Source: a plasmid
Sequence record: NZ_CP118109.1
DNA: 64,000 nt
Reading direction: 5' to 3' (one strand)
Part shown: piece after piece, positions 32,284-54,992 of the stretch
Position numbering within the stretch: position 1 is the stretch's first letter
How the letters are laid out: every line of letters starts with the position of its first letter
Position numbers and translations under genes: made by a program
The notes under the pieces: generated by a model
What the model saw: the letters and a program-made list of their open reading frames with translations, nothing else
Databases searched by the model: none
What the model was told of the DNA's origin: nothing

Positions 32284-33369
32284 TTAAGAGATAACCCGAA
32301 CTGTTTGAGGATTTGGATAACTGCGTTCGAATGCAAGGTTACGAGCTGTTGCTACTGCCTTACCTTCGTTCAATACGCCGATACCATAACGCTCTTTAAC
32401 TTTGATCGTTTGGATATCACGCATCGGATCGTCGAACTGTTCTGTAGACAATGGGTCTTTTACGAGTACGATACCGATATTGGATTTGTCCACAACGTAC
32501 ATATCGAATTTCTTCTCTTCGTAGTTGAATGGAGCAAACGGCGTAAAGTTGATGTTGATGCTGAATGGAATACGTCCTTGTACGCTGTCTGGGTTGATTT
32601 GCAGGTTCGTGATTTGGGAACCGCCCAGTGCTGCATGAGACAGAGATTGCATCAGATCATTTTTGAAGAATACGCTCCAAGTCAGTGGATGCATGATGAT
32701 ATCTGTAGGATTGAAGCCGTTAGCCATAACCGCTACGAACATGTCGATCATATCTTCTGTGCTCAGTGTATTATTCAGGTTGCCATCGATATCGCGGCCA
32801 GTTGTACCTGCTTCCGTATATTTCGTACGAATATCGTTATCATATACGATGTGACCATGCTTAGAGAATTGGTTGAAGATTTTTTCTTCTTTAAGGCGAG
32901 CCATTGCTTCGCCCGCTTTACGAACCAAGATCCCGATTACGTCCCACTGGGAGTCGTTGATCATTTCGTCTGTAACGCGGACCACCATACCAGATTTACC
33001 AACTTTGACTTCTTGCGTGCGGTGCATTTGGAAGTCAACAGTTTCTTCTAGGTACGATTGGCTTTCCCCGATATCATGCGCACGCATTGCGCCGATAGAC
33101 GGGAACTCGATAGAACGTCCTTCTGTTAGACGTACTGTTTGCATCAGGGTGGAGCCCAAATACATAGGCTCAGCTGCTTCACGCATCATACCAGTAATAA
33201 CGCGCGGGATAAGAATGGAAGCATCTTGTGTAGTGAGTGCTTCTTTTACGCCGACAAGGTCACCTTTCGGGATTTGCGTCCAGTCCTCTTCAAGGTTGAG
33301 TTGACGCTGCATTCTCTCGTAGACTTTCACAGCCTCCGGAGACAATTGCATTTCATTTAAGTTCATCAT
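32284..33369 (-). CDS. 361-aa putative major capsid protein (HK97-fold-like)
   Basis: Size and position after the scaffold-like gene; no diagnostic motif, composition consistent. Confidence 0.45.
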   Translation of the reverse strand: MMNLNEMQLSPEAVKVYERMQRQLNLEEDWTQIPKGDLVGVKEALTTQDASILIPRVITGMMREAAEPMYLGSTLMQTVRLTEGRSIEFPSIGAMRAHDIGESQSYLEETVDFQMHRTQEVKVGKSGMVVRVTDEMINDSQWDVIGILVRKAGEAMARLKEEKIFNQFSKHGHIVYDNDIRTKYTEAGTTGRDIDGNLNNTLSTEDMIDMFVAVMANGFNPTDIIMHPLTWSVFFKNDLMQSLSHAALGGSQITNLQINPDSVQGRIPFSININFTPFAPFNYEEKKFDMYVVDKSNIGIVLVKDPLSTEQFDDPMRDIQTIKVKERYGIGVLNEGKAVATARNLAFERSYPNPQTVRVIS

Positions 33370-34661: not shown

Positions 34662-36104
34662 TTAGTGTTTTTTGCTTTTAAACATGCCACTAAATAGATT
34701 TACAGCATCTTGTCCTGTCATCGTCTTCGGTGTCTCGGACTCATCTGTATGAACACCAGGGTTTGTTACACTACCTGGAACCGGCTTAAGAGTTTTAGAT
34801 TCTGCAAGAAGATCACTTCTCGTATTTTCCAATGACTCTTTACTACGTGTTGCATGAGCATCGACTGCTTCTTGGTGATCAACACCTACAACATCAGGTT
34901 TGTTAAGCTGACGCTTCATCTGAACAACACTTTCTGCAAGAGATCGATGAGCTGCCTCATTCAATGTCGCATTCTCTTGTGTCAGTCGAGAAACCTCGGC
35001 TTGTGCTTCAGATAGCTTTGCTCCCATGCGCTGATTTTCCATTACGAGATTTGTAATGGTTTGCTGCATCTCTGTCAGATTAACTGCCGGAGCTGGAGGA
35101 GTTGCAGGAGCAGGTGGATTGCTTTCCGTTGTTTGTGCAACTGGATCAGCATTCGTAGCTGCAGGAGGTGTTTGCTCTCCTTCTTTCGTACCAGCTACTG
35201 GATTTGTGTCTGGCTCAGCTGGAGGTGTCTGCTCTCCTTCTTTGGTTCCTGTAACAACTGTAGTTTCTGGATTTTCCTCATTTGGATTAGGCATTGTTGT
35301 ACTCCCTTCCTCAAATCTAAGCAAGTTTTCAAAGGCTTTCTTTTGTCCTTCGTTTAACTGCTCATATAGGTTAGTACCTGGGCTATCTACGTGCTGTAGC
35401 AACCCTTCGGCTAGTTGAAAGATGTTCATTTGAACGGATTCCTGAGAAGACCCGCTTGAGTTGCTTCCTTCATCCTCGTAAACTGCAGTAACACCTGTGT
35501 TGCCGGCATATTCGTCAGCAGGGACATTAACATATGAAACTTCACGTCCATATGTTGTTCCAATAATGAAATGAGCTGTCTGATCCTCGTATTCTTGTCC
35601 GGGATAGTGCTCACACCACTCTTGAGTGCGGTCTGATCCGCAAATGTTGCAAGTAACTTTATCTGTACTCGCCCCGATAGATACTGTTTGGTATCGACCA
35701 TCAAGCACCTTCTCGATTGCGACCGGATCGGTGATCTCTACGGTGAACATAAGCCCTGGCTTACCCGACATCGTCACATCATGGTACTCTGCCTTGATGA
35801 TCCGTCCGATTGGCTCACCGTCAACATCATTGTGGTGAGTCAGTACCGGCTTCGGCCGTGGTGACGTCCAGCTTTCAAGACCTGCAGACAATCCTTCTTT
35901 GGTGTAATACGTATAGTTACGAGTACGACCAACGTGGATTGCTTCAATGGTAACAATCAGCTTTTTGGGTTTTCCTTTGGCTGATTCATTCAACACCTGG
36001 ACTGATTCTCGTTTGATCTTTCCGATCGTTCCTAAATTCTCGTTAAAGGCTTTAGGCACCAGTGTTTTTTGTTCATGTTCTGTAAGCGTGTATACATTCC
36101 TCAC
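34662..36104 (-). CDS. 480-aa scaffold-like/prohead core protein with Pro-rich repeats and coiled coil
   Basis: Tandem TKEGEQTPPA repeats, PAPATPPAPA, then a helical Q/E-rich segment. Confidence 0.4.
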   Translation of the reverse strand: MRNVYTLTEHEQKTLVPKAFNENLGTIGKIKRESVQVLNESAKGKPKKLIVTIEAIHVGRTRNYTYYTKEGLSAGLESWTSPRPKPVLTHHNDVDGEPIGRIIKAEYHDVTMSGKPGLMFTVEITDPVAIEKVLDGRYQTVSIGASTDKVTCNICGSDRTQEWCEHYPGQEYEDQTAHFIIGTTYGREVSYVNVPADEYAGNTGVTAVYEDEGSNSSGSSQESVQMNIFQLAEGLLQHVDSPGTNLYEQLNEGQKKAFENLLRFEEGSTTMPNPNEENPETTVVTGTKEGEQTPPAEPDTNPVAGTKEGEQTPPAATNADPVAQTTESNPPAPATPPAPAVNLTEMQQTITNLVMENQRMGAKLSEAQAEVSRLTQENATLNEAAHRSLAESVVQMKRQLNKPDVVGVDHQEAVDAHATRSKESLENTRSDLLAESKTLKPVPGSVTNPGVHTDESETPKTMTGQDAVNLFSGMFKSKKH

Positions 36105-38350
36105 TTAGCTTCACCCCCTTCGTCATGGATTGTTAGATCACATTCGCAGTTCGTGTGAAACGGAGGAATGCGATAGAATATAGCCATCTCATCGTAGGAC
36201 GATAACTCTACCAGTGAGATAATCTCCTGCGATTTTTCATAGCAGGTTGAACAGCTTCCAGGCTCATGAAGAGCTTTTACGCTAGAGACTCCACTTCTGC
36301 CCAGCGCCAGAACATATCCGTAATGATATGTCTTAATCACTGTCGTCTTGGCAATAGCCTTAATGCGATGCCTTACAGATTCAAACACGCTGCGCGTGAT
36401 TAGAATTGCTTTGTTTTCATCATCTACACCTTTGAGCTTTTCATTTAATACGTGATGTATCGTTTCTTCCATCAAATCAAAAGAATCTTGTGTAAATTCA
36501 GATACCAGTCGAAGCGATTGCGATAAGTTAATACCAGGCGATTTAGATAGCTTTAATTGAGTAGCAGCTTTCTTTGCTCCTTCAAGGAGTACGCTTCTTG
36601 CTTCTTTCTGAATAACTTGATCCATTTTGTCTTTGCTGAAATGTATCGCAGAAAGGGCTTCAGATGGTGAAGTCATTGGAAACCTGTTACGGGTCTTCGT
36701 CCGCTGAATCTCACCAATCACATCCTCCTCCATCATAGAGAAGACTTTACTCATCTCTTTATGAAGGGATTGCACAGTCTCAATAGGAAGTTCAAATTCC
36801 GATTGAATCTGGTCGTATTGGTCTTTTTCTTTCAGCGAAATTCCAATCACTTTGTCGTACATTTCCTTCAAGGATTCTGTACTGCTTTTTGGTCCGGATC
36901 GTGTTCCATTTTGATTGGTTGGCTGTTGCTTATTGTTTGTTTCCGCACTGCCGGATGCCGCGACTGCTGCTTGATCAAGAGTCGCTTGATGCTCTGCTTG
37001 CTGCATCCCAATCATTTGGAAGTGTAATCGACCTTCATCGGTTACGGGGTCCATTCCGATATTCTTACGGGTTTCATCCCACGTCTGAACGTTATGCTCA
37101 AATTTAAAGATCTCATGTGTTTCGACCTTGATACGCATTTCTTGTTCAATTTCATTGAAGACGAAGTTAACTCTAAAATCAGGGTTGGCCATAGGATCAT
37201 AGCCGCCTTCAACCAGAAGTTCTTCGATAATGAATTGATCAATGTACATTTGGATCGTTTTCTGCCAACCTTTCACTCGGTCAGCTTTATTTCCACCCAT
37301 AGCGTCCGCTGTATTTCGATTGGCTGTATCTCCCCGACCGAAATCGACTTGAGACATACCAAGCCCCGAGAACACTCGGTTTTCGAAATAATCCAGATAA
37401 GGACGGCCATCAATGGCTGTTATATTTACAGCTTCTACTTTATGGCGTTCTGGAAGGACGATCGCACCATCCGTCGGTAAATCTTCGATAACAGATCGAA
37501 TAGCTTCAAGCTCTTCATCCGTTGCCTCATATCCCGGCTGTGCAACACCTACCGTATAAGCCAGAAGCGGAAAGATGTGTCGATACAGCAGGAGTGCCGC
37601 ATTCTCTTCAACCTTTCGCAAAAGCCTTACATCATCTATAACAGGAGCAAGAAACGGAATACCAAATGCTTCGCCTGCTGGACGATTCACAGGAATGTGA
37701 ATCATATCCTGCACCTGAAAATCTACTGTGTCTCCGCCTGATCCTGAATCCTGCGTATAGCTGGATACATTACCTTGATCATCCCGCGTAATTGAGATCG
37801 TCGCCGGTGGAAGTCTAAAATATCCGGCTACGGGATCTTTGGCTGGAAGGACTGCTGTTGCGGGAAGACCCGGAGGTAAACCCACTCCATTTTTTGCCCT
37901 GGCTTTGACAATGAAAGAGTTGTGAAATCTTACAACATCATCTGCGATTCCATGAAATAGCTCGTCTGTAGGTACTTGTGTAGCAATCGCCATCATATCC
38001 AGCCTTGTCTTGAGATACTGCAGAGCTTCATCACTACGACTCTTAAATGCATAGCCGCCTTTCATGATTAGCTCACTGTATTTCAGGACTGTCTGTGTTA
38101 GATAACTATCACGCTCTATGGCGGTTGCAATGGCTGCAAAGTCCGATTTCGGAGTTTCAGCATCACTACCACCTGAGCTGTTTTTGACTGCATATCCTAC
38201 TCGCTTGACTTGAGTCGCTTTTGGATCACGATTGACAGTGATGCCGCTACTGGAGCTGCCGCCCGTTGGAGTCGTTGCGTTCTTTAGGCCAATACGTGAT
38301 AAGACATTCATAAAAAGCTTAGCCAAGAAACACATCTCCTTTCCGAGCAA
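36101..38350 (-). CDS. 749-aa putative portal protein
   Basis: Large ORF two genes downstream of the large terminase and upstream of scaffold/capsid candidates; possible TTG start with RBS AAGGAG. Confidence 0.4.
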   Translation of the reverse strand: MLGKEMCFLAKLFMNVLSRIGLKNATTPTGGSSSSGITVNRDPKATQVKRVGYAVKNSSGGSDAETPKSDFAAIATAIERDSYLTQTVLKYSELIMKGGYAFKSRSDEALQYLKTRLDMMAIATQVPTDELFHGIADDVVRFHNSFIVKARAKNGVGLPPGLPATAVLPAKDPVAGYFRLPPATISITRDDQGNVSSYTQDSGSGGDTVDFQVQDMIHIPVNRPAGEAFGIPFLAPVIDDVRLLRKVEENAALLLYRHIFPLLAYTVGVAQPGYEATDEELEAIRSVIEDLPTDGAIVLPERHKVEAVNITAIDGRPYLDYFENRVFSGLGMSQVDFGRGDTANRNTADAMGGNKADRVKGWQKTIQMYIDQFIIEELLVEGGYDPMANPDFRVNFVFNEIEQEMRIKVETHEIFKFEHNVQTWDETRKNIGMDPVTDEGRLHFQMIGMQQAEHQATLDQAAVAASGSAETNNKQQPTNQNGTRSGPKSSTESLKEMYDKVIGISLKEKDQYDQIQSEFELPIETVQSLHKEMSKVFSMMEEDVIGEIQRTKTRNRFPMTSPSEALSAIHFSKDKMDQVIQKEARSVLLEGAKKAATQLKLSKSPGINLSQSLRLVSEFTQDSFDLMEETIHHVLNEKLKGVDDENKAILITRSVFESVRHRIKAIAKTTVIKTYHYGYVLALGRSGVSSVKALHEPGSCSTCYEKSQEIISLVELSSYDEMAIFYRIPPFHTNCECDLTIHDEGGEAK

Positions 38351-39672: not shown

Positions 39673-39683
39673 AAAATATGTAA

Positions 39684-39705
39684 GGCGCAGAGATTAGTCT
39701 GCGCC
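39684..39705 (-). other. Stem-loop GGCGCAG-N8-CTGCGCC just upstream of the RBS of the 38404..39672 gene, embedding a TGTAAGGCGC half-motif
   Basis: 7-bp stem. Confidence 0.35.
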
Positions 39706-39821
39706 CCAGGGAAAGAGAGTTTGATGAGCCTAGCCAGAAAGGATACAGGGGATTTTTGCCTTCCACCAGGCGGCCCAATGGCCACAAGGGACAACGCATT
39801 ACTTCAGGCATTCCAGAGGAT

Positions 39822-41591: not shown

Positions 41592-41822
41592 CTAATTTGC
41601 TCGATAGAGGTTGTTTAGGGTGTGGTATCCCTTTTGAGAAAGATTGACTTCAAATCCTCTTTCTCTTTTCCTCATGTGAAGCAACCCTTCGTCAGCTGCT
41701 TGGGTCCAATTCATTTGATCGTGTAGCCCATGCGTCTGCAAATGCTTCAGTGGAACCCATTGATCGTTCCTACGACCATGAAGAAGGATCTTATTTAATG
41801 ATTGATTAGATTTTAAAAACAT
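41592..41822 (-). CDS. 76-aa hypothetical protein
   Basis: ORF directly upstream of terL. Confidence 0.35.
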   Translation of the reverse strand: MFLKSNQSLNKILLHGRRNDQWVPLKHLQTHGLHDQMNWTQAADEGLLHMRKRERGFEVNLSQKGYHTLNNLYRAN

Positions 41823-41887
41823 CCTAATTCAGCACCCCTTCACTATTCATGAAGTTTGCATGAGTGCACCTCCTAGGCAGGATGTTC

Positions 41888-42283
41888 TTAATTATTCATT
41901 CCGTCTGCAATTCCGCCAATTAAAGAGCCACCTAAAGCAGCCGCTCCGTAAGTTAAAGCTTTTGATTTTCCACTTCCAAAAGCTTTTCCGTGATAACCTT
42001 TAACTGACTGGCTAAAAGACGATGCTTTTCTCATTGCCGCATCGCCAACAGTAGCTCTGGCTCTTTGTCCGTCTGTTACTGGAACCCCTGATGCATTGCT
42101 ATATCGAATATCATCATGGGCTCTTCTAGTAAACTCTCTCACCGGCTTTTTCATGCCACGCAAAGCAGCTTTTGTTCCGAATTGTGCTCCCGCAGCAAGC
42201 GTACCTCCTACGATAGCCCCACCGACAAGACCCGATCCAATACCATCATCCACGCGGTTATATGGATTGTTTGATTGCATCAT
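41888..42283 (-). CDS. 131-aa Gly/Ala-rich small protein (paralog D), glycine-zipper-like
   Basis: MMQSNNPYNRV N-terminus and ...GGSLIGGIADGMNN C-terminus, paralogous to the 42295..42642 product; RBS GAGGTGA. Confidence 0.5.
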   Translation of the reverse strand: MMQSNNPYNRVDDGIGSGLVGGAIVGGTLAAGAQFGTKAALRGMKKPVREFTRRAHDDIRYSNASGVPVTDGQRARATVGDAAMRKASSFSQSVKGYHGKAFGSGKSKALTYGAAALGGSLIGGIADGMNN

Positions 42284-42294
42284 TGTTATTCACC

Positions 42295-42642
42295 TCAATC
42301 ACTCATATAGTCAATTCCTGCCCCAATTCCTCCACCAAGCACAGCAGCACCAGCATAAAACCCTGCTTTCTTCCAGCCACCGCCAAACACCTTGCCATAA
42401 CCTCGCTCTACTTTTCCGCCGACTCCGACTGCTTTAGCAGTCTTCTTGGTGGATCCGTACTCCGGTAATAGAGGTGTGGAATCTTTTTTGGCTGATCTAG
42501 CTGCACTTATAAGTGAAGCTCCTTTTGCTCCTGCATGAACTACACCCATGCTCGCCGCCCCAGCCAAAGCCCCATAGGCTGCGCCATTGTAAACAGGGTC
42601 GTGGTTACTGACTCTCTGATAGGGTTCATTGCTTCTCATCAT
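42295..42642 (-). CDS. 115-aa Gly/Ala-rich small protein (paralog C)
   Basis: MMRSNEPYQRV ... GGGIGAGIDYMSD; RBS GGGAGGTGA. Confidence 0.5.
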   Translation of the reverse strand: MMRSNEPYQRVSNHDPVYNGAAYGALAGAASMGVVHAGAKGASLISAARSAKKDSTPLLPEYGSTKKTAKAVGVGGKVERGYGKVFGGGWKKAGFYAGAAVLGGGIGAGIDYMSD

Positions 42643-42659
42643 CTTTACTCACCTCCCTC

Positions 42660-43094
42660 TCAGTAGGCTTTAGATGCCCCGCGCGCATGCCTGTACATAA
42701 TGGCAGAAGCCGTGTTTCTCGCATTGGATGCATTCTGCATACCCGTCTGTTGCATATACATTTGCCCTTCATTCTGCGCGAAGCCGCCTCCAAACATAGA
42801 GGACTTCTGACGAATACCAGCCTTAGCCGCATCGGTCATCCGGATGATCTCAGGCGTCATAGATACGCCTGCCATAACCCCCATTGTAAGGAACCCACCG
42901 GGCATAAGGTTCCACGCGGCGTTAGTCAAAGCTGCTTTACCAATTGCGACAGCTGCATTCTCTCCATCTTTAATCCGAGAAACAGCATCAACTGCAACCA
43001 TCCCGGCACCGAATGCACGGGCTATCTTTCCTTCTTTTCTTATCTGATTGACGCCTTGACCAGGCGGCAACGCTTGTGTTGTCATATTGGACAT
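42660..43094 (-). CDS. 144-aa Gly/Ala/Met-rich small protein (B)
   Basis: ORF; low-complexity G/A/M-rich. Confidence 0.45.
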   Translation of the reverse strand: MSNMTTQALPPGQGVNQIRKEGKIARAFGAGMVAVDAVSRIKDGENAAVAIGKAALTNAAWNLMPGGFLTMGVMAGVSMTPEIIRMTDAAKAGIRQKSSMFGGGFAQNEGQMYMQQTGMQNASNARNTASAIMYRHARGASKAY

Positions 43095-43098
43095 CTAC

Positions 43099-43458
43099 CT
43101 AGCCTCCATGCCTTAAATTGTGCAGGGCAAATACTAGGTCGCCTCTCGCAGCCAGATCTTGATTGCCGGCAGGATCGCCTAGATATCCCATGCCATCCGA
43201 TCTTGTCCCAGGAAGCGACATAATCCCCCGATCATCCATAGCATCCATTGCATTTCGATTACCTGCTTCGGACTGTCCATTTATAACCTGATATCCGCCG
43301 TAAGCTCCCATTCCTGTAAGGGCTACCGCCTTTCCTTTTCTGGATAGTCCAAATCCTGTATACAGGTTATTGATGCTTCGCTGAGTGTTCTTCTCAAACA
43401 TCGAAGGGACTTGTTTCCCTATATATTTGCCCACGTTTACAGCGCCTCTGACATACAT
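43099..43458 (-). CDS. 119-aa Gly-rich small protein (A)
   Basis: ORF; Gly-rich. Confidence 0.45.
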   Translation of the reverse strand: MYVRGAVNVGKYIGKQVPSMFEKNTQRSINNLYTGFGLSRKGKAVALTGMGAYGGYQVINGQSEAGNRNAMDAMDDRGIMSLPGTRSDGMGYLGDPAGNQDLAARGDLVFALHNLRHGG

Positions 43459-43469
43459 GTTCTCACCTC

Positions 43470-44210
43470 CTATTCGATAGGTTCGACTTCAATTGGCGTG
43501 ATATCGATCGGCTCGTTATTGCCTCTCATCTTCTCGTAATATCTTCGTTCCGCCTCATCCTCATTTTCCATGTGAGCGTCCATATCATCGTTTACCTTGA
43601 CCATCTGTGAAGCTCTCGAAGCCGGATCAAGTTCAACTGTAACCTTCGTCCCTTGCTTATCACGGCGCGTACTGTTCAAGAGCTGCAGTGTCTTGTTCTT
43701 GCTGTTTCTCAGCTTCTCTTTATACTCGACTACGGGATGCAATTCTTTCTTCACTAGCGCATCTCCGTCTTCTGTCATACCCACCACGTTCTCTATGATG
43801 AAGTCCGCATCGATTGCCATCTTGTTATCACATCTAAGCAGGGATACATCAATATCAACGAGTTCTTTAACCATGATGAGATCGACCGTATTTTTCGGAT
43901 CCTCTCGATCAATCTTGAGGTCTGTGCAGTATCGGTCAAAGAGATCTTCAATCGCAGCAATCTCAATAGGACACTTCTCGCCAAAGGGTGCCATTTGCAT
44001 TTGCATGAGAGGGCAAGACTCACGATAAGGGCAGGATTCTGCTTTACAGATGATTGGCACGGATGCATATAGCCCATGCTTTGTACTGCGAAGCCTGCGG
44101 GCGACATCTATCGCCTGTATAGCGGCAGGATTCTGTGTCCAAGCCGTAGGATTCAGGTTTTGAGAGACGACCATCTTCCCGGCTTCGGTACGAGGTCCAG
44201 TATTAGACAT
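43470..44210 (-). CDS. 246-aa protein with Cys cluster (CKAESCPYRESCP...CPIE), possible terminase small subunit or DNA-binding packaging protein
   Basis: Position at the head of the packaging module; no diagnostic motif. Confidence 0.35.
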   Translation of the reverse strand: MSNTGPRTEAGKMVVSQNLNPTAWTQNPAAIQAIDVARRLRSTKHGLYASVPIICKAESCPYRESCPLMQMQMAPFGEKCPIEIAAIEDLFDRYCTDLKIDREDPKNTVDLIMVKELVDIDVSLLRCDNKMAIDADFIIENVVGMTEDGDALVKKELHPVVEYKEKLRNSKNKTLQLLNSTRRDKQGTKVTVELDPASRASQMVKVNDDMDAHMENEDEAERRYYEKMRGNNEPIDITPIEVEPIE

Positions 44211-44796: not shown

Positions 44797-44973
44797 TTAT
44801 TTTCCTTCGTTTTGCTCCGATTCAATAGCTTTCGATAATAATCGTCTGGCTTCTGTTGCCCAATCACCTGGCTTGATCTTATCGAAATGATCTTTAATAT
44901 CTGTATCGACATCACGAATGATGACTTGGACTTTCGGCACCTTCCGTGCTTTCGTCTCTCTTTCTTCAGCCAT
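44797..44973 (-). CDS. 58-aa small basic/acidic protein translationally coupled (TAATG) to the actin-like gene; candidate ParR/AlpR-type DNA-binding adaptor
   Basis: ATG overlaps the stop of the upstream gene; MAEERETKARKVPKVQVIIRDVDTDIKDHFDKIKPGDWATEARRLLSKAIESEQNEGK; below the 60-aa cutoff of the ORF track. Confidence 0.5.
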   Translation of the reverse strand: MAEERETKARKVPKVQVIIRDVDTDIKDHFDKIKPGDWATEARRLLSKAIESEQNEGK

Positions 44974-46166
44974 TACGCTGCCTCGCTTTCGAATATATCT
45001 TTGATGAATCTTTCATAAACCTGCTCAAAGTTCAGACTGCCATCTTCCTGTTCCTTGACTTGGTTCATTGCCGCACGAATATAGAATCCATATACGTTCG
45101 CCATTTGCGGGTCGTCCACTACGGAGAAGGCTTGTACCTTACGCTTCGCAAACTCTTCTTTCAAGAAGTCTTGGAAGATATGTGCGCCCCCGCCTGAAAG
45201 CAAGATGATCTTCACACGGTTCGCATGCTGACCCCAAGACGTAATAACCTCATTTGCGATGACTGCAGAGATCTCCTTCGCGGCTTCTTCTACAAGATGA
45301 TACAGATTATGAGAAGCGCCATTGAACTCGATTTCTTCTCCACGAACGACTGAATCTAGTTCGTCATCCGTTGGGCTGTAAGCAACCCCAAACTCGTTAT
45401 CAAAGTGAATAGCCATACTCACTTTGAGTCGCTTGTACAGCTCAGCAGTCGCAAGTGTCGATCCATAAGTTCCCTCTTCCTCTACATATACGCCTTCGGA
45501 GAATAATGCATAATCTGTAGTGAGGTGCCCGATATCAACGATAGCAGTCAAAGCTCTGTAGAGCGTAGTCGTCAAAAGACCTTCTTTTGTGAAAGCGAAT
45601 TGTGTAGATGTTACACTTCCCTCTGGCTGTCTCAAGATTTCATATCCAATAACATTAATTTTCTTAGTGATTGTTTTTCCATAACCAAGGTAGATCACAA
45701 TTTCAAAACTTTGGTTTATGTACTCTTCCAACCGTGTGCGAATACCTTTATCGAAATCCTCATTCGGCAGACCAGTTGTTAAGTAGACATTATATTCTCC
45801 ATCTTCATGAGGAACACATAGTGCAAGATTGGTTTCAAACATAACTCTGAATGATGGATCGGATGCACGGTCATGATTGGTTGTCCGACTTGTAACCAGA
45901 AGCTTATTACTCTTCATTGCCTGTTCGCCTACATGATAGAAACCGTCAGTAGTCTTCACCATCAAGCGAGATTCATCGACTTCTGTGTGCTTAAAGGAAT
46001 TAGCGAACTTTTCATTTGTAGGCATGACAGTACTCGGTATGACACCGAACATGCCTAAGCTCGACATGCGCTTGCTTCCATTAAAACCAATATCAATTGC
46101 TGCAAGCTCAAAATCAAATAAGTCTTCTAGCTTTAACTTCAAATCTTTCACTTTTTTCACCGCCAT
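44973..46166 (-). CDS. 397-aa actin-like ATPase (ParM/Alp family)
   Basis: Actin-fold phosphate-1 LAAIDIGFNGSK, phosphate-2 IVDIGHLTTDYALF, adenosine motif ILLSGGGA; RBS GGAGG. Confidence 0.7.
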   Translation of the reverse strand: MAVKKVKDLKLKLEDLFDFELAAIDIGFNGSKRMSSLGMFGVIPSTVMPTNEKFANSFKHTEVDESRLMVKTTDGFYHVGEQAMKSNKLLVTSRTTNHDRASDPSFRVMFETNLALCVPHEDGEYNVYLTTGLPNEDFDKGIRTRLEEYINQSFEIVIYLGYGKTITKKINVIGYEILRQPEGSVTSTQFAFTKEGLLTTTLYRALTAIVDIGHLTTDYALFSEGVYVEEEGTYGSTLATAELYKRLKVSMAIHFDNEFGVAYSPTDDELDSVVRGEEIEFNGASHNLYHLVEEAAKEISAVIANEVITSWGQHANRVKIILLSGGGAHIFQDFLKEEFAKRKVQAFSVVDDPQMANVYGFYIRAAMNQVKEQEDGSLNFEQVYERFIKDIFESEAA

Positions 46167-46213: not shown

Positions 46214-46742
46214 TCTGATGTATTCTCTCGTAAACGATCATAACATATTTAATAGATACCAAGCAACCCTTAATTTGGACAACAAAAAAAGCAGCAGGTG
46301 TGCCGCCCGCCGCTTTTCGAACAAGTGAAGCTGTATGAGGTTGGAGATCTCACGTATCCTTCGCTGAGTTATATTTTAAGCCATTTGGCAAAAAATATCA
46401 AGAACGTATGTTCTCTTTTTGTGATTTCTTTTCACAGAAAAGGCTTCAAGACCGTTGCCAACGTTTCAACATATGATTTCAACACTGGAGGTGTAATTTT
46501 AACAGATAGAGGGTGGCAGTCCTATGACCTGTTGGCTATTTACTTGAAGCCCTTTTCTCTAAAAAGAGTATTGGCATACTCCGGATTATTTTTTTGTAGG
46601 AGGTGTCGTGAGCCCATGCTAAGCATCACGATTAATCCGGAGCAAACCATACTGTGTCCAGTCAGCTATTTTGAGGAGAGCTGCTGCAGTCATCTGCCAA
46701 GTCGGGTCTGTGTTCTCGACTTGAGTTTATTCTATACGATAA

Positions 46743-50992: not shown

Positions 50993-51343
50993 TAGGTCAT
51001 GGACATGGCATGGTATAGATGCATAGGGAGTACACGATAACGGTGGATGATCCCCTATGTAGGCTATACCCTCTACCCTACCTTATATGGTGGCATGGGT
51101 GGCAGTACTATGGTTAGCCATATTGTGCCTATGTATATGGGCATATGGGTGTGTAGGTGCACTCTATCATATACAGCCCCTGTGTAGTACGCATGGTCCG
51201 GGTCAGCCGCCCCCATGTGTAGTATGCAGGGGTCTTTTTATTTATTTACACATAGCTCCCTGTATAGGTGCCCTATATAGACCCCCCTCTATATGGACCC
51301 CCCTATATAGGGAGCTGTATGTAAGTACAGCACATTTAACCCC
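50993..51343 (+). repeat. 350-bp ORF-free GC-rich array of about 10 degenerate CCC(C)TRTRTAGG-like words immediately upstream of the polymerase gene
   Basis: cccctatgtagg, ccttatatggtgg, cctatgtatatggg, cccctgtgtag, ccccatgtgtag, ccctgtatagg, ccctatatag, cccctctatatgg, cccctatataggg; T-run at ~51230. Confidence 0.5.
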
Positions 51344-51359
51344 AAGGAGGAATCACTCT

Positions 51360-54300
51360 ATGTCAACTGATTCAAAGAAAGCTATGTCGTCCGTCCCTAT
51401 GTCCAACAAACAAACTAAAACAAACAAAAAGGAGCAATCTACAATGACTAACAACAAACAAGCACAAATCAACAAGCAACTGGCTGAGGTAAACCGTCTT
51501 TTCAACAAAGCTATCAAAGGTAACAAACTAGAGGCGCAAATGTCTGATTACAAGTCTACTTCTGTAGTATTGGATGCTATTGCTGAGTTCCCAGGATTGG
51601 GCGTTAAAACAAAGAATTATGAGGCTATCACAGCTGCTATCGCTAGTGGTAAGGATATCCGTACTGTTATGGAGAACCCGGAGCTTACTGGTGTTCCTAA
51701 GAATCAATATCGCTTCTTCCGTGCATTCATGGAAGAGAAAGGTGCAGAGATTCCTGCTATGGTGATTGCACCTACTCGTAAGCGTGTACGTACTGTATCT
51801 GTCGATCTATTGAAACATTCCCGCAACGAAGCTGGTGAAGTGGTGCTCAACGCGGAAGTCAGCTATCAATCTCAGTCTCAGCTTGCTGATGCATTCGGTA
51901 AATTGGTTCCAGCTACAGATAGCAATGATCTACACTTGGATGCGACTCACATTGTCTATATCGATTTGAATATCGCTGATCAAGAGAATCAAGAAATGAA
52001 AGACTTGCAAATCGAGATCGTCCGTAATGGATTCTATTACACAGTGGAAGGCGTTACACGCAAAGCTAACTTCTTTATTCAGACAGCAAATCAAACTCGT
52101 CAATTGCAAGGTATCTATATTGCAGAGGACTTCATGACGATTCCTCAAGCATTCCGCAAGCTTGGTCATAGCTTCCTGTCTTATTGCAAACTGGATAAGG
52201 CTACTGGTGTCTATACACTGGATATCACGAAGTATCTGAAACGTCCAGGTCTGTCTGGTACAAGCTCTGTGCCATCTAAGGTAGTAACCTTCCCTAATGC
52301 TCATATCGACAAGCTGCCTAACATGAGAACAGGAGAATACTTGGTTAACTCTGATCGTCACTCTATGGCAGTGATTGATGATCGCTTTGCTAAGATCAAG
52401 AATGGTAAGTTCAAAGCATTCTATAACAACCGTGTAGTCACTGTATCTGCGGTTGATGGTACATTCACAGCTACATGGAAAGAAGGACGCATGACTAAAG
52501 AAGAAGTCCTGCCTATGAACTATCTGAAGCTTGGCGTAGGCGATGGCTTGGTTCTAGCTTCCGAGTCGATCTACTGGGCATTGAAGGCTGAGTTTGGCAA
52601 TGATTCCGATGCATGGCAAGTACGTATCACCCCATTCGTTAAAGGCTTGATGGTATTCGTGCCAGGCTTGCGTCAATACTATGATGCAGATATCGTTGCA
52701 TTCAAGTCTGCTGTGAAAGGTGACTTCCGTTTGCTTGCTGATAGCGAAGGTAAGATTGACTTTGGTATTGAGCTGCGTATTGCACGCTTTGCTAAGCGTC
52801 CTGCTATGAAGTCTGAGTATGTAGAGCTTCCATATCAGTTTGCACATGTATCCAGCATTACAGCAGAGCAAATGATTGATGTTGCTCAACCACGCCTGGA
52901 TGAAGCTAAGAGTGTACTTACTAATCCTGCACTGATTCAAAAGTATGCAGGGGTTGCTCACTTGGAGAAGCTGAACAAGCTGACTCTTGCACAAGCTGAG
53001 TTTCTACGTGATCGCTCCCTTGTTTCTGTATTTGCTAACTTCATGCACTATGCTCCATTCACATTCCAAGATGCTTACATGCAAACAAGAGCACTGAGAC
53101 TGATGGGGCAGCAAGTAGACAAATGGGTTGCTGGTACGATTCCTGTAGAAGGCGAGTATCGCTTCATGGTTCAAGATCCATATGCATTGCTTCAAGCTGT
53201 GGAAGATGAGAATGGAGATATGATTGTCCCTGATCACGTTGGTCTTAAGCCACACCAAACATTCATGACAGCACGCGATAACCAACACTTTGTAGAGGGC
53301 CCTGTTGCATCCTTCCGTAACCCTGCTATTGCTAAAGGTGAAGGACGTATCTTGAATGGTGTAGCTCCACAAAACTATGTGACTGCTTCTGCTAAAGGCG
53401 CATTCAACTCTGTATGTGTAATGAGCTGCCATGACTTGGATACATTCGCTGAAGGCGGAGCTGATAACGATGGTGATGAAACATTCATTACACAAGTACG
53501 TGCTATCGTTAATGGCATCATGGGTAAAGATGGTCAATCTAAGTTCTTGGCTATGCTTGACCTGCATGTAGATAAAGATGGTGAGTGGTCTTCTGGATGC
53601 CCGTTCCCTATGGAATCTGATGAGAAGCTTGCATTTGATGCTCCTTGCGTATCACACGATGGACAATTCAAAGTGAAGTTCACTGCCGATCAATATAATG
53701 ATGCATTCATTCAAGCTGTACATGAGCTAAGCAAAGAGTATGTCATTCGTACACTGACTCCTAACAAGATCGGTCAACTGACTAACATTGCTACTCGTCT
53801 TGCTGATGCTGTACGTAAAGTAGGATATATGTATGCAGAGAATACCAATGAGTTTGGTCAAAAGACTGAACGTTCAGATGCTGAGAAACAAGAGCTGATT
53901 AGAGAGATCGCTCGTATGGAAGATATGATCGACTTGATTCGTCTGGCTCAAGGATGGGAGATTGACCGTGCTAAGCATGGTGGTGCATATGAGGAAGCAT
54001 TGGCTGCTGAATTGGAGTTCATCAACAATCCTCCAAGATATGCAGGATTCCAAGAGTCACCTAAATCCAAGCGTCAATGGATCAAGCAAGCATGGCTCGC
54101 ACATCACAAAGGTGCTGAGGGTGGAGTAGACACAGGTTCTGTAATGTCCCGTGTGCATAACCACATGAAAGCATTCGTACAAGAGAATGTAATCGACAAG
54201 TCCGAAGAGATCATGAACGATGTAGAGAACAACAACCTGATTCATATCCTGAGAGCTGAGTATGTTATTGATCCAGTTATCTATGACAGAATCGCTAACT

Positions 54301-54992
54301 CTATTCGTTCCATTCGCTCTATCTATACAAACGACATCAAGAACGCTCGTCAGAAGCATGAAGAGTTCATCAAGCTTGCTGAGCTGAAATATGGTGAGGC
54401 TGATCCTGCACTGGCGATGGCTAAAGAGAAGATCGAGCGTATCTATAGAGATGATTGCGATGCGATCACCTATAAGAGTCAAATGACACTTGGCGCTTTG
54501 GAGTTCTCTTTCTCTGCGACTGATATCGGCTATGTTGCATACATGGTGACATACACTGAGAGAGGTCAAGATAACAATCGTTCGATCAGCTTCCCTTGGG
54601 TCGTGGCTAAGAAGCAATTCTTGGAGCTGTGTGCTGCTATCTCTAATCGTGAGATTGTGAAGAACCCTTATGTTGTCCCTGCATCTGATATCAAGGCAAA
54701 CTTCCGTATTGGGGCTGATTCAACTGGTCGTGTGTTTGATGGAGAGAGAATGGCACCTGTCATTGCGAATGCAGGTATGGTAACAGTGGAGTATATGTAT
54801 AACGAAGTTACTGAAAGCTACATGTATGTTGTTTATGTTCCAGTAGGCAGCAGAAATGTATATGTAGGCGACTTCTACCAAGATCAAGTTGGATTCTTGA
54901 CTGGTGCAACACGTTTCAATCTTACAGTGTCCAATGCTGAAGCTAAAGGCAGAACTATGAGTCTGACGATCTCCAGCATCGAACGCATGTAA
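51360..54992 (+). CDS. 1210-aa single-chain two-barrel (YonO/RDR/crAss gp66-like) RNA polymerase candidate
   Basis: Beta-prime DPBB signature VASFRNPAIAKGEGRIL ... GGADNDGDETF (compare NRAPTLHRLG ... NADFDGDQM); RBS AAGGAGG 9 nt upstream of ATG 51360 (alternative ATG 51444 also has an RBS); the track N-terminal extension from 51087 translates a repeat array and is rejected. Confidence 0.65.
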   Translation: MSTDSKKAMSSVPMSNKQTKTNKKEQSTMTNNKQAQINKQLAEVNRLFNKAIKGNKLEAQMSDYKSTSVVLDAIAEFPGLGVKTKNYEAITAAIASGKDIRTVMENPELTGVPKNQYRFFRAFMEEKGAEIPAMVIAPTRKRVRTVSVDLLKHSRNEAGEVVLNAEVSYQSQSQLADAFGKLVPATDSNDLHLDATHIVYIDLNIADQENQEMKDLQIEIVRNGFYYTVEGVTRKANFFIQTANQTRQLQGIYIAEDFMTIPQAFRKLGHSFLSYCKLDKATGVYTLDITKYLKRPGLSGTSSVPSKVVTFPNAHIDKLPNMRTGEYLVNSDRHSMAVIDDRFAKIKNGKFKAFYNNRVVTVSAVDGTFTATWKEGRMTKEEVLPMNYLKLGVGDGLVLASESIYWALKAEFGNDSDAWQVRITPFVKGLMVFVPGLRQYYDADIVAFKSAVKGDFRLLADSEGKIDFGIELRIARFAKRPAMKSEYVELPYQFAHVSSITAEQMIDVAQPRLDEAKSVLTNPALIQKYAGVAHLEKLNKLTLAQAEFLRDRSLVSVFANFMHYAPFTFQDAYMQTRALRLMGQQVDKWVAGTIPVEGEYRFMVQDPYALLQAVEDENGDMIVPDHVGLKPHQTFMTARDNQHFVEGPVASFRNPAIAKGEGRILNGVAPQNYVTASAKGAFNSVCVMSCHDLDTFAEGGADNDGDETFITQVRAIVNGIMGKDGQSKFLAMLDLHVDKDGEWSSGCPFPMESDEKLAFDAPCVSHDGQFKVKFTADQYNDAFIQAVHELSKEYVIRTLTPNKIGQLTNIATRLADAVRKVGYMYAENTNEFGQKTERSDAEKQELIREIARMEDMIDLIRLAQGWEIDRAKHGGAYEEALAAELEFINNPPRYAGFQESPKSKRQWIKQAWLAHHKGAEGGVDTGSVMSRVHNHMKAFVQENVIDKSEEIMNDVENNNLIHILRAEYVIDPVIYDRIANSIRSIRSIYTNDIKNARQKHEEFIKLAELKYGEADPALAMAKEKIERIYRDDCDAITYKSQMTLGALEFSFSATDIGYVAYMVTYTERGQDNNRSISFPWVVAKKQFLELCAAISNREIVKNPYVVPASDIKANFRIGADSTGRVFDGERMAPVIANAGMVTVEYMYNEVTESYMYVVYVPVGSRNVYVGDFYQDQVGFLTGATRFNLTVSNAEAKGRTMSLTISSIERM

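Follow-up and report, generated by a model that had tools for sequence, protein, structure and literature searches.

A conserved array of small glycine- and alanine-rich genes upstream of terL in a Paenibacillus urinalis phage-plasmid

Results

Four small genes upstream of terL

The subject of this study is a run of four short, consecutive genes in a plasmid record of Paenibacillus urinalis (NZ_CP118109.1), of which a stretch of 64,000 nucleotides was analysed (hereafter the window). The genes lie between a homolog of gp112 of Bacillus phage 0305phi8-36 and the large terminase gene terL, and are arranged as follows, in order of transcription:

43099..43458, minus strand: w119, family A, 119 amino acids (NCBI coding sequence PUW25_25420)
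42660..43094, minus strand: w144, family B, 144 amino acids (PUW25_25415)
42295..42642, minus strand: w115, family C copy 1, 115 amino acids (PUW25_25410)
41888..42283, minus strand: w131, family C copy 2, 131 amino acids (PUW25_25405)

Each open reading frame (ORF) begins with ATG, 6-9 nucleotides behind a GGAGG-type Shine-Dalgarno sequence, and the gaps between neighbouring genes are 4-17 nucleotides long. NCBI calls exactly the same four coding sequences (CDSs), each labelled hypothetical protein. Relative to the 88%-identical locus L003, the ratio of non-synonymous to synonymous change (pN/pS) is 0.20 for w119, 0.21 for w144, 0.45 for w115 and 0.53 for w131, against 0.11 for terL; all four array genes are therefore under purifying selection, and homologs of them are present in every related locus. 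A first-pass annotation of this DNA had described four well-punctuated ORFs with good ribosome-binding sites, and the Shine-Dalgarno sites, the pN/pS values and the matching NCBI calls confirm that description; these are genuine, conserved, syntenic genes under selection.

The four proteins are all basic (isoelectric point, pI, 9.6-10.3) and combine 27-36% glycine and alanine, compared with 13.1 +/- 3.2% (maximum 22.7%) in the 40 other ORFs of the window, which upholds the glycine/alanine richness first remarked upon; the array stretch is also the GC maximum of the whole window. The last two genes were correctly recognised as paralogs: w115 and w131 are 31% identical over 128 amino acids, with a Smith-Waterman z of 7.7 and a score reached by none of 1000 composition-preserving shuffles. 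All remaining pairs resemble each other within chance in the same shuffle tests, which rules out the idea that all four genes are paralogs, and because no pair except w115 and w131 exceeds chance similarity we recognise three unrelated families, A, B and C, the last represented twice. The tandem array of four originally proposed therefore stands as a series of consecutive genes, but one drawn from three unrelated families, and a fifth small gene, w76, precedes terL.

The proteins had also been called glycine-zipper-like, which is true of w115 and w131, where strict GxxxGxxxG runs occur together with 12-13 small-residue zipper registers each, but not of w119, which has neither a hydrophobic segment nor a strict glycine zipper. 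In w144, w115 and w131 the glycine/alanine-rich segments show only marginal hydrophobicity. Their best 19-residue stretches have insertion energies of +4.1 to +6.7 kcal/mol, compared with <=0 kcal/mol for the top hydrophobic ORF segments elsewhere in the window; these values are approximate, being taken from the central-position scale of Hessa without positional weighting. The zipper segments are thus unlikely to be ordinary translocon-inserted helices, a weakness of hydrophobicity that argues against plain integral membrane proteins.

A module of the 0305phi8-36 lineage

The same four proteins, at 100% identity, are encoded in a P. urinalis record of 214,846 bp that is labelled a plasmid. Shortly downstream of terL the window has genes for the portal (36101-38350), the protease/scaffold (34662-36104) and the major capsid protein (32284-33369), and it also contains a ParM-like partition gene; because terL and these head genes are encoded together with a partition protein, the 'plasmid' is a jumbo phage-plasmid of the 0305phi8-36 lineage. 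Contigs like it, ~170-265 kb long, come from Paenibacillus sp. TCA20 and UNC496MF, Alicyclobacillus shizuokensis, Oceanobacillus profundus, a Bacillota metagenome-assembled genome and many IMG/VR entries. A megablast of the array region against phage and plasmid collections returned zero matches, and tblastn of the four proteins against annotated phages reached only Moorella phage MTATph1, weakly.

In 0305phi8-36 the gene order is gp112, gp113, gp114, gp115, gp116 and terL (gp117). GenBank notes describe gp113, gp114 and gp116 as 'identified as virion protein by mass spectrometry', and gp112 and gp115 as 'hypothetical'. Across ~34 non-redundant loci from Paenibacillus, Bacillus, Alicyclobacillus, Oceanobacillus, Moorella and metagenomes, family A is directly followed by family B in nearly every case, between a gp112 homolog and terL (an interval of 1.3-3.3 kb), and other small glycine/alanine-rich genes flank the pair in variable numbers. 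Three arrangements can be written down:

Paenibacillus-type subclade: [D] A B C(x1-4) [small ORF] terL
Bacillus-type subclade: X Y A B terL
0305phi8-36: D A B gp116 terL

Family B stands immediately upstream of terL in Bacillus phages Edson and WH1 and in loci L025-L030, L037 and L040, while family C genes and w76 stand between the two in the subclade of the window. The position of the array had been thought unusual for genes of this kind. As the A-B pair occurs in this slot in nearly every related locus, however, the slot before terL is a hallmark of the lineage and not an oddity, and the comparison with related phages by which the array was to be judged finds the pair retained and the region coding and under selection. 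On homology and gene order, the array is this element's form of a late-gene module that is conserved among 0305phi8-36-lineage jumbo myoviruses and phage-plasmids of Bacillota.

Family D is the gp113 type (E = 5e-11) and ends in ...RDLVG(V/I)P(L/F)I. In many relatives the gene stands ahead of family A (L004 6775-7122, L005 6785-7129, L014, L022, L023 and Moorella CDS0248); it is absent from the whole window and from L003, the closest relative. Its C-terminal motif is loosely like the GDLVFAL motif of family A. Some distant relatives carry another small family after B (L015 7963-8271, L024 7228-7617 and Moorella CDS0253, which is L011 8299-8622), with a glycine-rich hydrophobic segment near the C-terminus followed by HG(K/R)PN.ELY.

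Scans of w119, w144, w115 and w131 against Pfam, PHROGs and NCBIfam gave no match, which for w144 includes the terminase small-subunit families. PHROG scans of gp112-gp116 of 0305phi8-36, and likewise of distant members of family B, were uninformative, and profile searches with families A, B and the w246 family (the gp112 homologs) against PDB sequences produced noise only. The comparative-genomics paper on 0305phi8-36 does not discuss these ORFs, and we found no literature on phages WH1, MTATph1 and KLEB27-3.

Family A

Family A has three invariant motifs, R.INNL(Y/W)TG, SLPGT..DG.GY and, at the extreme C-terminus, GDLVFALHNLRHGG (43102-43143 in w119, a small basic protein of pI 9.6). The C-terminus of w119 is 41% identical to that of 0305phi8-36 gp114 over 54 amino acids by BLASTP, a similarity that covers the C-terminal GDLVFA(L/M)HN(L/M)R motif. 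The family A profile (A2) matches gp114 with E = 1.2e-3 at Z = 5e7, and with 5.8e-10 among 24 syntenic candidates. Taken together, its matches to gp114, Edson 1140, WH1 gp118 and Moorella CDS0251 have E-values of 1e-3 to 2e-6 on the former footing and about 1e-9 to 1e-12 on the latter. On this similarity w119 is a homolog of gp114, albeit one of 119 amino acids compared with 248 in the 0305phi8-36 protein. An AlphaFold2 model of w119 from a 7-sequence alignment has a confidence score (pLDDT) of 48.0.

Family B

Family B is the most conserved of the array families and is predicted to be all-helical. Its N-terminal half is glycine/alanine-rich, with the consensus DAY.R.K.GE..VA.GKA..TNA.W...PGG, and is marginally hydrophobic in w144; the conserved C-terminal half reads FGGGF.Q.EGQ..M.Q.G..N...AR..A...M..HARGA.K.Y (in w144, FGGGFxQNEGQ...HARGAxKxY, 42663-42794). 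An expanded profile of 82 members, at Z = 5e7, matches gp115 with E = 9.6e-15, Edson 1130 with 5.6e-29 and Moorella CDS0252 with 4.9e-33, and the similarity between w144 and gp115 includes a GG(N/G)(F/Y)xDxQxAATMRQ...EAR motif. By these profile matches w144 is the ortholog of gp115. An exhaustive search of 1.84 billion proteins yielded 73 representative clusters of the family, nearly all 130-170 amino acids long. The AlphaFold2 model of w144, from a 17-sequence alignment, has a pLDDT of 49.6.

A few members are longer. The distant family B protein P0095 (569 amino acids) has a fused N-terminal domain of 440 amino acids with an HELGH (HExxH, zincin-like) motif, a domain unmatched in Pfam, PHROG and PDB, and other members carry N-terminal extensions of 60-160 amino acids. 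Of two further fusion candidates, P0042 has a low-complexity N-terminus, and P0094 was rejected as a false positive, being a cadherin-repeat protein.

Family C

Members of family C are built to a common plan: a motif [S]N(E/Q/N)PY(Q/N)(R/K)V, a glycine-zipper segment, an indel-rich linker of ~20 to >150 residues, FG.G(W)K, and a C-terminal glycine zipper ending in (I/A)D.M.(D/N). Thus w115 has SNEPYQRV (42610-42633), the first zipper, a short basic linker, FGGGWK and a C-terminal zipper ending in IDYMSD, and w131 has SNNPYNRV (42251-42274) and two zipper segments on either side of a hypervariable linker, residues 38-99 (41987-42172). SNxPYxRV is kept across 20 aligned members despite a mean column identity of 22%, and terminal motifs are invariant in alignments A1, A2 and A4. 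Selection follows the same division, with pN/pS of 0.21-0.45 in the constrained termini compared with ~1.0, the neutral value, in the linker. These 20 members matched no consistent Pfam family at E <= 1, and no glycine-zipper, holin or bacteriocin family. Among 2.9 million viral contigs, those matching a degenerate DNA pattern for NQPYQRVD all belonged to the 0305phi8-36 lineage.

Copy number ranges from 0 to 4 across relatives, with 1-4 tandem copies where the family is present, and two units are at times fused into a single ORF of 264-297 amino acids. The TCA20 relative matches w246, A, B and w115 at 98%, 97%, 92% and 94% identity, as against 47% for the w131 counterpart (P0027), whose linker retains 12/62 residues. 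The w131 gene is thus a divergence hot spot, a pattern that points to recombinational replacement or diversifying selection. As far as our searches show, neither the architecture of family C nor the w131 hot spot has been described before. After the w131 stop codon there is a perfect AGGAGGTG Shine-Dalgarno sequence (41874..41867, minus strand), followed by a four-codon mini-ORF, MQTS-stop (41861..41847), which may be what remains of the beginning of another, third family C gene (compare MMQSN/MMQTN) or else an element for translational coupling.

Flanking genes and transcription signals

The features surrounding the array are these:

46286-46318, minus strand: terminator-like hairpin upstream of the ParM-like gene (consensus-match scan)
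44973-46166, minus strand: ParM-like partition protein (phrog_691, E = 3e-39)
43470..44210, minus strand: w246, 246 amino acids, gp112 homolog and left anchor of the module (38% identity to gp112, E = 3e-38)
41926..41942, minus strand: weak terminator-like match within w131, the sole listed match on this strand inside the array
41592..41822, minus strand: w76, small basic ORF between w131 and terL, conserved only in L003
39822..41582, minus strand: terL, 586 amino acids, intact in the window, right anchor of the module
39681..39708, minus strand: terminator-like hairpin directly past terL (consensus-match scan)

A gp112-family gene opens the module in every relative. The w246 family has four invariant cysteines, C55, C60, C66 and C80 (CK..xCPY...C...KCPIE), a pattern that suggests a zinc ribbon. 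The small-terminase label that the first-pass annotation attached to this gene is not borne out, since no family matched above threshold: Terminase_4 was touched by 1/12 members (E = 0.089, 13.6 bits compared with a cut-off of 24.7), the 12 members matched no consistent Pfam family at E <= 1, and w246 found no small terminase in PHROG, NCBIfam or PDB. That w246 is a small terminase is possible and unproven. The small gene w76 is 73% identical to its counterpart in L003, with a pN/pS of 0.18, and its exact sequence is not present in the protein collection searched.

The closest annotated relatives of terL are Moorella phage MTATph1 (44% identity), Edson and WH1 (39-40%), KLEB27-3 (36%) and 0305phi8-36 (34%). 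In Edson and WH1 the terL CDS (L002 5630-8554 and L012 3630-6554) is 974 amino acids long, with an insertion right after the Walker-A GRRVGK that looks like an intein. In L005 (8374-10049) the terL ORF ends after 323 amino acids and is followed by a LAGLIDADG-like ORF, and terL seems fragmented in L006, L016 and L022. The array may lie in a transcription unit bounded by the two hairpins, the one past terL and the one ahead of the ParM-like gene. The hairpin past terL, and the lack of a strong terminator-like site inside the array, fit, and do not show, co-transcription with terL as a late unit. Near 50.3 kb of the window both gene orientation and GC skew switch, and beyond this point an ORF of 1301 amino acids (51087-54992, plus strand) has a strongly hydrophobic start (MVAWVAVLWLAILCLCIWA).

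Discussion

The role that seems most likely for the four proteins is that of minor components of the virion, housed in the head, and not that of packaging enzymes. Our preferred reading, to which we give a probability of about 0.45, is that they are small virion proteins made late, which enter the head by means of conserved terminal motifs and may be released when the phage infects. Three of the four members of the syntenic block in 0305phi8-36 (gp113, gp114 and gp116) are virion-annotated, this being the only experimental attribute of the module. The first-pass annotation had raised the possibility of internal or ejected head proteins; virion association is plausible, for w119 through its homology to gp114, and a head-internal or ejected role goes a step further. 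We infer loading into the prohead and exit with the DNA because the termini are conserved, the centre is variable, the proteins are basic and only marginally hydrophobic, copy number varies and there is a hot spot of divergence.

The mechanism might run as follows. The terminal motifs, GDLVFALHNLRHGG in family A, HARGAxKxY in family B and the N-terminal SNxPYxRV with the glycine zippers in family C, would act as docking or targeting elements for prohead loading. Marginal hydrophobicity would leave the zipper proteins soluble enough to be packaged, yet capable of tight helix-helix oligomerisation. After leaving through the tail with the DNA, their zipper segments could insert into or perturb the single membrane of the host, an activity that composition alone suggests, and the unconstrained, indel-rich linker of family C would serve as a spacer or as a variable region facing the host. 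A place inside the head, loading by way of the termini, release during infection and action on membranes are all inferred.

Several observations weigh against this reading. The ortholog of w144, gp115, has no virion annotation in 0305phi8-36, and the notes on gp113, gp114 and gp116 do not place these proteins in head or tail. The mass-spectrometry evidence is second-hand, from GenBank notes, and comes from a relative whose terL is ~34% identical; for the P. urinalis element itself, the case is one of sequence comparison. The family C profile reaches gp116 with E = 3.6e-4 among 24 sequences, a weak match in which compositional bias amounts to 8.6 of 12.2 bits, and what the two share is placement after a gp115-type gene only. 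The AlphaFold2 models of w119 and w144 are helical, of low confidence (pLDDT 48-50) and uninformative. A need for ejected channel-forming proteins is not known in contractile-tailed phages. According to a review, classical ejection proteins characterise podoviruses that infect Gram-negative bacteria, and phi29-like phages, whose hosts are Gram-positive, lack them (PMC8954989).

The virion annotation of gp113, gp114 and gp116 would equally suit proteins that stay with the particle, as minor head, portal-proximal or neck parts that line the capsid or stabilise the DNA end, with the glycine zippers serving only for tight oligomeric packing of helices. Proximity to the terL, portal and protease genes, a basic pI compatible with DNA contact and terminal motifs suited to fixed protein-protein docking all agree with such a role. 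We nonetheless think it unlikely, given its poor fit with a family C copy number of 0-4, with a family D that comes and goes between relatives and with a neutral linker, and profile searches of families A and B against PDB found no similarity to any solved virion protein. It is also rather doubtful that some or all of the genes are non-virion accessories of morphogenesis or packaging, such as a prohead-initiation factor or portal chaperone, with family B as an atypical, small-terminase-like partner of terL. Family B is the natural candidate for this, as the most conserved and predicted all-helical member, co-oriented with terL and directly preceding it in the phages and loci named above, in a lineage for which no confirmed small terminase has been identified, and its gp115 representative is not virion-annotated. 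Against this, family A (as gp114), gp113 and gp116 are so annotated, known small terminases have nothing like the glycine/alanine-rich hydrophobic half of family B, searches of Pfam, PHROGs and NCBIfam matched no small-subunit family, and family C and w76 separate family B from terL in the subclade of the window.

Glycine zippers are typical of oligomeric membrane channels, and in family C two somewhat hydrophobic zipper segments flank a basic loop, so that a pinholin-like hairpin could be imagined, and with it membrane proteins of the infected or lysogenic cell acting as holins or antiholins or in superinfection exclusion; the fast evolution of w131 could then mirror a conflict interface. We regard this as improbable. 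The insertion energies of +4 to +7 kcal/mol compare badly with <=0 for the top hydrophobic segments of the window, searches of Pfam (E <= 1, 20 members), PHROG and NCBIfam found no holin or glycine-zipper family, the genes sit within a late head and packaging operon with no lysin recognised among the neighbouring genes scanned, and their syntenic relatives are virion-annotated. As for the suspicion that a GC-rich, low-complexity stretch without any database family merely contains open frames by chance, its probability is negligible in view of the strong ribosome-binding sites, pN/pS of 0.2-0.5, motifs kept across dozens of loci, 73 family B clusters and identical independent gene calls; a non-coding artefact is refuted by the conservation and selection data.

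Head loading and release also admit a bolder version, which we consider speculative and unlikely as it stands: that a contractile-tailed jumbo phage-plasmid of Gram-positive bacteria here loads its capsid with membrane-active 'pilot' peptides. Family C would then be a modular cargo system, in which SNxPYxRV and the glycine zippers direct the protein to the head and, after ejection, to the host membrane, and the hypervariable linker is a surface in an arms race with host defences or superinfection exclusion. If true, this would extend the concepts of ejection proteins and T4 capsid targeting to a lineage and an envelope type for which neither has been described. Head loading by itself would mean that podoviruses and T4-like phages are not alone in having small proteins of the internal or ejected kind; the terminal motifs would offer a ready-made capsid-targeting tag for under-studied jumbo phages and phage-plasmids of Bacillota, and the family C hot spot would mark an interface of phage-host conflict. 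In any event, three uncharacterised, lineage-restricted families outside Pfam, PHROGs and NCBIfam are now tied to the 0305phi8-36 virion proteome.

The nearest analogue of the array is the gp113-gp116 block of 0305phi8-36 itself, which has the same position and orientation, also consists of small glycine/alanine-rich proteins, and is linked to the array by the homology of w119 to gp114 and of w144 to gp115. The window differs in having no family D gene, two family C genes in place of gp116, and shorter proteins.

The structure of family C has similarities with the internal proteins of phage T4. IPI, IPII and IPIII are small, basic proteins of tandem, diverse genes, loaded into the prohead core by an N-terminal sequence and injected with the DNA, and among T-even phages such proteins are so diverse that the capsid targeting sequence is their only common part (PMC3012670). 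Family C follows the same pattern, in that its N-terminal motif is conserved, the body of the protein is hypervariable and the number of copies varies. There is, however, no sequence similarity, no PHROG or Pfam match of the array proteins indicating homology to the T4 targeting sequence or internal proteins; family C additionally has a conserved C-terminus and two glycine-zipper segments, and the T4 genes, unlike the array, are not adjacent to terminase. Family C thus resembles the capsid-targeting logic of the T4 internal proteins by analogy, with protease cleavage and injection putative.

A second comparison is with the ejection proteins of podoviruses, such as gp14, gp15 and gp16 of T7 and gp7, gp20 and gp16 of P22, and with the small T7 virion proteins gp6.7 and gp7.3. 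Ejection proteins are internal, some having predicted membrane-inserting helices, and after leaving the capsid they work in the envelope of the host; their evolution is rapid, and it is often size and synteny, not sequence, by which they are identified (PMC8954989). Homology of the array proteins to them was not detected in PHROG or Pfam, nor in PDB profiles for families A and B. These are moreover proteins of short-tailed phages with Gram-negative hosts, whereas the element described here is a contractile-tailed jumbo phage of monoderm Bacillota and its proteins are far smaller. Finally, the GxxxGxxxG pattern of w115 and w131 is shared with glycine-zipper membrane motifs, as seen in the Pfam glycine-zipper families, pinholins and two-peptide bacteriocins, although by our simple estimate of insertion energy the family C segments are too polar for classical transmembrane helices. 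By analogy with the podovirus ejection proteins, these segments suggest a role in oligomerisation or in perturbing the host membrane.

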